A DNA stretch of 9,194 nt, taken from IMG/VR virus record IMGVR_UViG_2526164630_000024. One strand, written 5' to 3'. Each line of letters starts with the position of its first letter. Positions within the stretch are counted from its first letter, which is position 1. Position numbers and translations under genes: made by a program. The notes below the pieces were generated by a model that saw only the letters and a list, made by a program, of their open reading frames with translations, did not search any database and was not told where the DNA came from. Below, piece after piece: positions 6,092-6,330 of the stretch. The stretch is from a virus (lineage: Duplodnaviria; Heunggongvirae; Uroviricota; Caudoviricetes).

Positions 6092-6128
6092 AATAAAAAA
6101 ATCCCGCAGAGTTAGCGGAGCTGCGGGA
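6091..6128 (-). terminator. Hairpin next to an A/T tract, intrinsic-terminator-like when read on the minus strand
   Basis: Perfect 8-bp inverted repeat TCCCGCAG (6102-6109) / CTGCGGGA (6121-6128) with an 11-nt loop, directly preceded on the + strand by AAATAAAAAAA (6091-6101). Read on the minus strand this is a stem-loop followed by a T-run. On the + strand it lacks a T tail, and its right arm overlaps a possible Shine-Dalgarno for the small ORF at 6136. Confidence 0.3.
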
Positions 6129-6135
6129 GAGAACG

Positions 6136-6255
6136 ATGAAGATTAACGTTATGGAGTTATTTTTCAGGCATCAAAAAAGTAATGCAGCGTCATTATTGCG
6201 GCTACAGGCAATTGCCGGAAATGTGAAGAGTTTCAGAAATTTTATTCCGTCATGA
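6136..6255 (+). CDS. Hypothetical small ORF (39 codons) in the I-J intergenic insert, speculative
   Basis: ATG at 6136 to TGA at 6253-6255 encodes MKINVMELFFRHQKSNAASLLRLQAIAGNVKSFRNFIPS. GGGAGAG lies 4 nt upstream. It sits in a segment that is about 37-38% G+C by my count, with a strong hairpin immediately downstream. I recognise no homologue. Confidence 0.15.
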   Translation: MKINVMELFFRHQKSNAASLLRLQAIAGNVKSFRNFIPS

Positions 6256-6256
6256 C

Positions 6257-6288
6257 ACAGGCACCCTCCGGGGTGCCTGTTGTTTTCT
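6257..6288 (+). terminator. Candidate rho-independent terminator (+ strand)
   Basis: Perfect 10-bp stem ACAGGCACCC (6257-6266) / GGGTGCCTGT (6271-6280) with a 4-nt loop TCCG, followed by TGTTTTCTGG (T-rich). Confidence 0.5.
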
Positions 6289-6330
6289 GGCATAAACAGA
6301 TTCAGACATCAGACAGGAGAGGGGGACAGA

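Follow-up and report, generated by a model that had tools for sequence, protein, structure and literature searches.

Hfq-dependent small RNAs (sRNAs) encoded by lambdoid prophages have been described in two pathogenic Escherichia coli strains under separate names. In enteropathogenic E. coli (EPEC) O127:H6 strain E2348/69, prophage PP6 encodes PasB (pathogenicity-associated sRNA B), an RNA of 83 nucleotides (nt) on the minus strand (1466343..1466261), whose flanking genes are drawn as '(> <) >' and which is detected with the northern probe AATCCCGCAGTGATCGCGGAGCT (Pearl Mizrahi 2021, Table S6, PMC8550237). The level of pasB falls in an hfq deletion, with log2 changes of −6.8 in the activating and −2.4 in the non-activating condition, and ligating and sequencing interacting RNAs (RIL-seq) in EPEC yielded 37 interactions of PasB, with 1,820 chimeric fragments in the non-activating versus 258 in the activating condition (PMC8550237). 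In O157:H7 strain Sakai, EcOnc22 (prophage Sp15), EcOnc23 (Sp14) and EcOnc24 (Sp11) are homologous Hfq-binding sites on the genome plus strand (Tree 2014, Table S2, PMC4104026), and EcOnc22 runs at ~85 nt on northern blots and loses stability when hfq is deleted (Tree 2014, PMC4104026). Here, we analyse a stretch of 9,194 nt from a Caudoviricetes record (IMGVR_UViG_2526164630_000024; the whole stretch is referred to as the window) and report that the spacer between its tail genes I and J very probably carries, antisense to the tail operon, a minus-strand copy of the PasB/EcOnc22–24 sRNA gene. This gene is no discovery; it had already been described in pathogenic E. coli.

Several lines of evidence support this identification. 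First, gene order and strands in the window are those of E2348/69, in which I (1465674–1466255, plus strand) is followed by PasB, antisense and 6 to 88 nt past the I stop codon, and then by J (from 1466496, plus strand). Second, the two ends of E2348/69 PasB align to window positions 6170 and 6095 on the minus strand; compared with the 83-nt PasB, the window copy has 64 identical nt and three insertions or deletions (indels), and the PasB northern probe matches window 6100–6122 at 20 of 23 positions, with all mismatches falling within a hairpin loop. Third, the I–J gaps of Sakai Sp15, Sp14 and Sp11 are identical to the window across 6094–6340, and in all three prophages I and J lie on the genome minus strand, i.e., antisense to EcOnc22, EcOnc23 and EcOnc24. 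Fourth, Hfq cross-linking and analysis of cDNA (CRAC) in Sakai lysogens shows a strong strand bias. The interval ECs2161...ECs2162 in Table S1B of Tree 2014 corresponds to J...I of Sp11 and has 21,338 versus 241 reads in its two strand columns, a bias of ~90:1 toward the strand antisense to the tail operon; the heavy column was assigned to the plus strand by means of the rows for rrnH, rrnD, omrA/B and fnrS. Judged from sequence, synteny, strand and terminator, all of which agree, the locus is a member of the PasB/EcOnc22–24 family. The features discussed below are collected in Table 1.

The position of the Hfq-binding peaks depends on how the coordinates of Tree 2014 are read. They refer to an older version of the genome and are offset from NC_002695.2 by +141 to +146 at 1.27 and 1.94 Mb, as determined by locating AsxR and AgvB1. 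A zero offset near Sp15 is impossible, because EcOnc42 would then land inside a gene and not in the intergenic site described for it; the placement of EcOnc15 agrees. After correction, the EcOnc22, EcOnc23 and EcOnc24 peaks lie at approximately window 6105–6172 on the minus strand. Taken without correction, the coordinates would put the peak over the second hairpin of the spacer (hairpin 2), a placement ruled out by the AsxR/AgvB1 offset and by the gene-named interval of Table S1B. More generally, EcOnc coordinates put on NC_002695.2 without the offset correction give misplaced sRNAs.

The window copy resembles PasB in lying antisense between I and J with its 3' end a few nt past the I stop codon, and in its terminator stem, U7 tail, CRP-like site, promoter-region architecture and hairpin 2. 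It differs from PasB in a body that is 7 nt shorter, with the three indels and a different terminator loop, in a conserved 8-mer that reads UAAUCUUC rather than UGAUCUUC, and in a weaker upstream −10-like hexamer (AATAAT), which is not accompanied by a TTCACA −35 element. By comparison, the RNA is essentially the same as EcOnc22, EcOnc23 and EcOnc24. Just beyond the RNA, the A-run past the I stop codon is one A shorter in the window than in these copies and in all close relatives, and the genes on either side share only ~96% identity with the best phage record.

Other Hfq-binding sRNAs of lambdoid prophages were considered. AgvB/AsxR and HnrS are, like the element described here, short, carried as prophage cargo and often multicopy. 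AgvB/AsxR differ in their conserved 3' module and sit beside stx, at a moron site that lies downstream of the late promoter PR'; identity with them was rejected on grounds of location and sequence. Their Rfam models gave no match in the window. HnrS, which is multicopy with up to nine copies, was rejected as well, as it corresponds to EcOnc10–12, a 66-nt RNA at other late-gene positions. The preliminary description of this DNA, which had been made from the sequence alone, had proposed nucleotide and Rfam searches of the segment. None of the Rfam covariance models (AgvB RF02702, AsxR RF02703, Esr41, STnc100 and others) matched anywhere in the window, on either strand, at E ≤ 1.

The segment is widespread. 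Of 5,426 complete E. coli genomes, 802 carry it, with three copies per genome in the median and nine at most, and its annotation there is always only 'tail assembly protein' on one side and 'J' on the other; the best matches listed are mostly O157:H7 and other isolates of the Shiga toxin-producing E. coli type, of human or cattle origin. A 261-nt segment is 99.6% identical to the I–J gaps of VT1-Sakai, CP-1639 and Stx2a_WGPS6, and 80–85% identical to those of many further Shiga toxin (Stx) phages. Table S6 of Pearl Mizrahi 2021 lists homologues in enterohaemorrhagic E. coli (EHEC) for PasA and PasD only and none for PasB, and the term 'EcOnc' occurs 0 times in the preprint of Zhu, Shabalina and Storz (2026). 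Equating PasB with EcOnc22–24 counts as modestly new.

Table 1. Features of the I–J junction and its flanking genes, in window coordinates
Feature	Position	Strand	Details
PasB/EcOnc22-type Hfq-dependent sRNA	6095..6170	−	predicted length 75–76 nt; 5' end placed by homology
Intrinsic terminator of the sRNA (hairpin 1)	6095..6127	−	stem 6127–6121/6109–6103; 11-nt loop; U7 at 6101–6095
Single-stranded 8-mer UAAUCUUC, candidate seed	6138..6145	−	just 5' of the terminator
Candidate −10 hexamer P2 (TACTTT)	6176..6181	−	predicts a start at ~6169
Second −10-like hexamer P1 (AATAAT)	6192..6197	−	possible upstream tandem promoter; would give a start at ~6185 and an RNA of ~91 nt
CRP-like palindrome TGTGA-AGAGTT-TCAGA, putative site	6222..6237	.	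centre 6229.5
Terminator-like hairpin 2	6257..6288	+	perfect 10-bp stem 6257–6266/6271–6280; loop TCCG; U-rich tail TGTTTTCT
39-codon open reading frame, judged non-coding	6136..6255	+	ATG start; GGGAGAG at 6125–6131 upstream
Tail assembly gene I	5513..6091	+	start approximate; stop TGA at 6089–6091; 3' neighbour of the sRNA terminator
Host-specificity gene J, start	6331..7305	+	GTG at 6331; Shine-Dalgarno sequence GGAGAGGGGG at ~6315–6324; frame broken at ~7270–7300

Conserved elements of the I–J spacer

The preliminary description had drawn attention to the spacer by its length (~240 nt, against ~60 nt in phage lambda), by the low G+C content of its core (~37–38%) in an otherwise GC-rich window, and by two terminator-like hairpins. 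These observations hold. The gap (6092–6330) measures 239 nt and its lambda counterpart 60 nt (NC_001416 15445–15504), and G+C content is 37.5% in 6131–6250 versus 57.6% in the whole window; only 0.17% of 120-nt intervals are as low as 6131–6250, with the minimum beginning at 6127. Hairpin 1 was recovered by a terminator scan as a terminator-like site on the minus strand, the strand that the preliminary description had correctly assigned to it, with a stem of ~7–8 bp followed by U7 and a folding z of −3.0 relative to shuffled sequence, and the 3' end of PasB falls where the U tract ends. Hairpin 1 together with U7 is the intrinsic terminator of the sRNA. Hairpin 2 was recovered by the same scan on the plus strand, with its perfect 10-bp stem and T tail (z = −4.1, and none of 200 shuffled sequences folding as well). 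What did not stand is the idea that the two hairpins bracket a single unit: hairpin 2 is separate, and the insert comprises the ~175 nt between the I stop codon and hairpin 2.

The first set of homologues was collected with the CRP-like motif itself and was, therefore, unfit to show conservation of that motif. For this reason, the analysis was repeated on loci ascertained through the neighbouring I protein (94–99% identical), which avoids this circularity and gave a comparison set of 80 viral contigs. From these, 64 loci with a gap of 238–263 or ~345 nt and a full promoter region, together with the window, represent 36 distinct sequences. Presence and absence were judged from viral contigs, as searching genome contigs with protein I found no more than five loci, of which three lay in implausible hosts. 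The latter (L010, L011 and L013) are short contigs labelled Streptomyces flavalbus, Parendozoicomonas haliclonae and a Clostridiales metagenome-assembled genome, with I proteins at 93–100% identity, which most likely reflect assembly contamination. The preliminary description had also suggested an alignment of the junction as a test of whether the segment comes and goes as a unit. The segment is indeed absent from lambda, and none of the 80 loci has a gap of lambda length; among these close relatives, however, it is near-universal, with a PasB-type terminator in 78 of 80.

Conservation among the 36 gaps is island-like. Little or no variation is seen in the terminator stems, in the 8-mer, in either −10-like hexamer or in the CRP-like half-sites; the variable parts are the loop of the terminator, the body of the sRNA and the spacer that separates the promoter elements. 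All indels lie within the transcribed body and none in the promoter region. All seven stem pairs of hairpin 1 are invariant in 35–36 of the 36 sequences, while its loop varies in sequence and, from 10 to 16 nt, in length. The 8-mer GAAGATTA (UAAUCUUC in the RNA) is invariant in all 36, carries one change in E2348/69 and is unpaired or weakly paired in the predicted fold; Zhu et al. (2026 preprint) located the putative seed of PasB in this region. These islands coincide with the promoter, seed and terminator elements, and the homologous RNA has been detected by Hfq CRAC, northern blot, RNA sequencing (RNA-seq) and RIL-seq. It is, thus, vanishingly unlikely that the gap is a neutral spacer of leftover AT-rich DNA with chance hairpins and no function, a view for which the missing annotation and the missing Rfam family are the only arguments.

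The cargo might alternatively be a protein. In the preliminary description, the 39-codon open reading frame (ORF) was the leading candidate for accessory cargo of the moron type, and a small RNA was named as the fallback. The ORF exists, and its layout is gene-like: GGGAGAG is followed after 4 nt by ATG, and the stop codon lies 1 nt before the strong terminator hairpin 2, so that it could be read as a small-protein moron with its own Shine-Dalgarno sequence, ended by hairpin 2. In some GenBank records the gap contains an annotated 'hypothetical protein'; two such proteins are, however, different ORFs in differing frames and positions. The frame is not conserved, either. In 8 of the 36 gaps the start codon is ACG or deleted, and in the others the ORF encodes 10–41 amino acids with differing frames and C-termini; the shared part is 'MKIN' only, which is the mirror image of the conserved 8-mer of the sRNA. 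Scans against NCBIfam and PHROG gave no credible match for the 39-residue product or for a 40-residue ORF on the minus strand (6171–6293), and the parts of the Sakai small-gene ribosome-profiling supplements available to us have no entry in the three I–J gaps, a weak negative, as multi-copy regions were perhaps excluded. Moreover, Hfq-bound RNA comes predominantly from the other strand. A protein product is accordingly extremely unlikely, and we judge the ORF, from its sequence, to be non-coding and a by-product of an AT-rich sRNA gene read backwards. The fallback was the correct choice.

The moron idea itself survives in part. The concept reportedly goes back to Juhala et al. in 2000. Like phage morons such as sodC, the element is additional DNA of deviant base composition that sits between conserved late genes, brings a terminator and a predicted promoter of its own and is expressed from the prophage; what sets it apart is its cargo, a minus-strand non-coding RNA in place of a protein gene. 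Being accessory, low in G+C and absent from lambda, the element fits the moron concept with an RNA as cargo.

Hairpin 2 raises the question of a function on the plus strand. Most of the 60-nt lambda gap is taken up by the hairpin ACCGCC-TGCG-GGCGGT with TTTTGTCATTT behind it, immediately ahead of the ribosome-binding site of J. This hairpin resembles hairpin 2 in its GC-rich stem, its T-rich run, its strand and its place just upstream of the J ribosome-binding site, and differs from it in having no sequence similarity and in being the sole content of the gap. We know of no function assigned to the lambda hairpin. Because lambda has a hairpin at the equivalent place, hairpin 2 looks like the resident, ancestral I–J hairpin, with the sRNA module inserted between the I stop codon and hairpin 2. 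At the pair 6264/6273, 19 of the distinct sequences have C-G and 16 have T-A, which amounts to a compensatory change, and in the ~345-nt gap class hairpin 2 is replaced by a different strong hairpin; together with the lambda counterpart, this replacement suggests selection for a plus-strand hairpin before J. The likely role of hairpin 2 would be to stop transcription unmodified by the antiterminator Q before it enters J, although it may instead be an mRNA stability element. On these grounds, along with its folding score, the spacer could be read primarily as a leader or attenuator for J, with hairpin 2 as a conditional terminator or stability element, or as a source of an sRNA from the 3' untranslated region of I, with the minus-strand RNA being secondary. 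This reading leaves the invariant minus-strand terminator, the −10 hexamers and the detected minus-strand RNA unexplained. In addition, relatives with sodC at the junction are devoid of any hairpin before J, textbook lambda biology leads one to expect that intrinsic terminators are passed by Q-modified late transcription, and the tail-gene strand has almost no Hfq-bound reads in lysogens. As the primary function of the spacer, a plus-strand role is quite unlikely; it is compatible with the sRNA gene rather than an alternative to it.

Two further observations concern the J leader. A hairpin ahead of J recurs in most, not all, relatives. Upstream of the J ribosome-binding site (~6296–6312 in the window), the heptamer CAGACAT is present in ~4 tandem copies in some relatives with gaps of 262–263 nt (L278 and L237); the copy number of CAGACAT is a small repeat-number polymorphism of the J leader.

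Candidate promoter and cassette organisation

The I–J junction of relatives holds more than PasB-type genes. In 15 of the 80 loci, a minus-strand sodC gene (Pfam Sod_Cu, PF00080, E = 4e-32; e.g., L249 868–1730) lies at the junction, and 15 of the 80 have a gap of ~855 nt. sodC, with its own terminator, replaces hairpin 2, the CRP-like site and the hexamer P1, with its border right upstream of P2, and the loci of this class keep the sRNA body and its terminator downstream of sodC. A scan with a 14-mer from the terminator arm gave mostly chance matches and was informative only for these sodC-class loci. Other loci carry sRNA-like cassettes in tandem: two units in L015 (9780–10330), L030, L070 and L090, and three in L056 (4200–5110). 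All of these units lie on the minus strand, each complete with a terminator and a TGTGA-N6-TCAGA site of its own. One body, which we refer to as type 2 (L015 9985–10127, minus strand), includes CUCCUUAAGGUGA and contains CUCCUUAAGG. The type-2 unit is present, unannotated, in 27 of 5,426 E. coli genomes. Searches against Rfam gave no match for the type-2 unit and chance-level matches only for the three-cassette locus L056.

The promoter of the sRNA is predicted from conserved −10-like hexamers and the 5' end of the homologue. P2 (read from 6181 to 6176), whose distance from the CRP-like site is constant, is TAnnnT in 35 of 36 sequences, and the start that it predicts lies within 1 nt of the PasB 5' end, which derives from RNA-seq coverage and northern blot. 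P2 as a working −10 element is further supported by the type-2 body, which begins exactly 8 nt past a TAnnnT hexamer in two different promoter contexts. P1 likewise lies at a fixed offset; it reads TATAAT, AATAAT, TATCAT or GATAAT in relatives, with A2 and T6 invariant, and the E2348/69 copy has TATAAT and, 16 bp upstream of it, TTCACA. A generic sigma-70 scan of 5400–7000 on both strands returned 0 promoters because the sRNA gene is without a −35 element.

Upstream of both hexamers lies a putative binding site for the cAMP receptor protein CRP. At 9 of 10 core positions it fits TGTGA-N6-TCACA, with a perfect left half and AAA flank, and 0.33 matches of this quality are expected by chance per 9.2-kb window. 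Both half-sites and the AAA flank are invariant in all 36 I-ascertained sequences, and the block AAATGTGA-AGA..T-TCAGAA is invariant save for two central spacer positions. The centre of the site is at −60.5 relative to the start predicted by P2 and by homology, and at −44.5 relative to that predicted by P1. [quoted passage not shown] The match to the consensus, the class-I-like spacing, the fact that the site travels with each extra cassette and the LB-versus-DMEM contrast together suggest that cAMP-CRP may activate the sRNA. Neither Pearl Mizrahi 2021 nor the Zhu 2026 preprint discusses a promoter or CRP for PasB, and the candidate CRP control, which we infer, is a modestly new point. A second match to TGTGA-N6-TCACA, with one mismatch (TGTGAAAGATATGACA), is present at 151–166, at the V/G gene boundary.

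Several points weigh against the reading of the spacer as a CRP-controlled PasB/EcOnc22–24 gene. All experimental evidence comes from homologues, though the Sakai copies are identical across 6094–6340. Rfam has no family for PasB/EcOnc22–24. The function of PasB has not been elucidated according to Zhu et al. (2026 preprint), and a 2021 review gives the targets of EcOnc22–24 as unknown. Two conserved −10-like hexamers compete for the 5' end of the sRNA; the Sakai northern band of ~85 nt falls between the lengths predicted from P2 (76 nt) and P1 (91 nt). As for the CRP-like site, its spacing is 1 bp off the canonical class I position of −61.5 for P2 and 3 bp off the class II position of −41.5 for P1, its right half-site has a C-to-G change at a contact position, and the LB-versus-DMEM contrast is confounded by growth phase.

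The tandem and sodC-class loci point to a broader, tentative idea. Possibly, the I–J junction of Stx-type lambdoid prophages is a docking site for exchangeable minus-strand sRNA cassettes that share a putative cAMP-CRP-responsive promoter module (TGTGA-N6-TCAGA plus TAnnnT), and whose bodies are swapped or stacked in one to three units, the type-2 body with its anti-Shine-Dalgarno-like CUCCUUAAGG being one of them. The cassette arrays at this junction are a second modestly new point that we infer.

Flanking genes, mode of action and significance

The window covers tail genes V, G, T, H, M, L, K, I and J of a lambdoid prophage of the Stx-phage type; along its whole length it shares 96.5% identity with phage CP-1639. 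The I translation is 94–99% identical to I of Stx-type prophages, and the annotations of VT1-Sakai, CP-1639 and Sakai Sp15 give its product as tail assembly protein I. The N-terminus of J, read from the GTG at 6331, is VGKGGGKGHTP and resembles that of lambda J. Set against CP-1639, the window shows one insertion of 5 nt and ~25 indels of a single base, many of them outside homopolymers, at positions such as 57, 654, 756, 1413, 1859, 2184, 2276, 2993, 3046, 4709 and 4721, and further at 5494–5531, 6091, 7269–7297 and 8302–8956. These split H into at least four ORF pieces and J into three (6280–7305, 7235–8326 and 8245–8787), and other tail genes are touched. The scattered indels reflect either prophage decay or error-prone assembly.

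We suggest the following mode of action for the PasB-type sRNA. RNA polymerase would start at ~6169–6170, or at ~6185 if P1 is used instead, and would end at the U7 of hairpin 1 (6095), giving a minus-strand RNA of ~76 nt from the former start. The homologous RNA (~80 nt) is made in uninduced lysogens, where it is Hfq-bound and Hfq-stabilised (E2348/69, PMC8550237; the identical Sakai copies, PMC4104026). Because PasB forms Hfq-dependent chimeras with 37 partner RNAs in EPEC, the sRNA most likely acts in trans, pairing with mRNAs of the host and of the accessory genome. Pairing may occur through the conserved, unpaired UAAUCUUC just 5' of the terminator. Transcription would be activated by cAMP-CRP from the TGTGA-N6-TCAGA site ~60 bp upstream in a class-I-like arrangement, and the sRNA would in that way report carbon starvation or stationary phase.

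The gene layout also gives the sRNA ~76 nt of perfect complementarity to the late transcript, and a genome may hold up to nine near-identical copies of the locus. The sRNA could, therefore, act mainly in cis or on sibling prophages, either by pairing with late mRNA and causing its processing by RNase III or by being titrated by late mRNA on induction. The complementary region ends 3 nt past the I stop codon, and more than 140 nt separate it from the ribosome-binding site of J further downstream; for this reason no direct translational effect on J is expected; in addition, RIL-seq in EPEC found many partners in trans. A main action in cis is rather unlikely, and action in trans on host and accessory mRNAs is the reading that we prefer.

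Recognising the spacer as a PasB/EcOnc22–24 gene prevents mis-annotation, as pipelines sometimes call spurious 'hypothetical proteins' in it, and links the EPEC literature on PasB to the EHEC literature on EcOnc22–24. The CRP-like site and the cassette arrays provide handles on how this family of sRNAs is regulated and what it does. If the tentative idea of exchangeable cassettes is true, prophages would plug several catabolite-sensing riboregulators into the Hfq network of their host, and the PasB-type RNA could also pair with the late I–J mRNA of sibling prophages.

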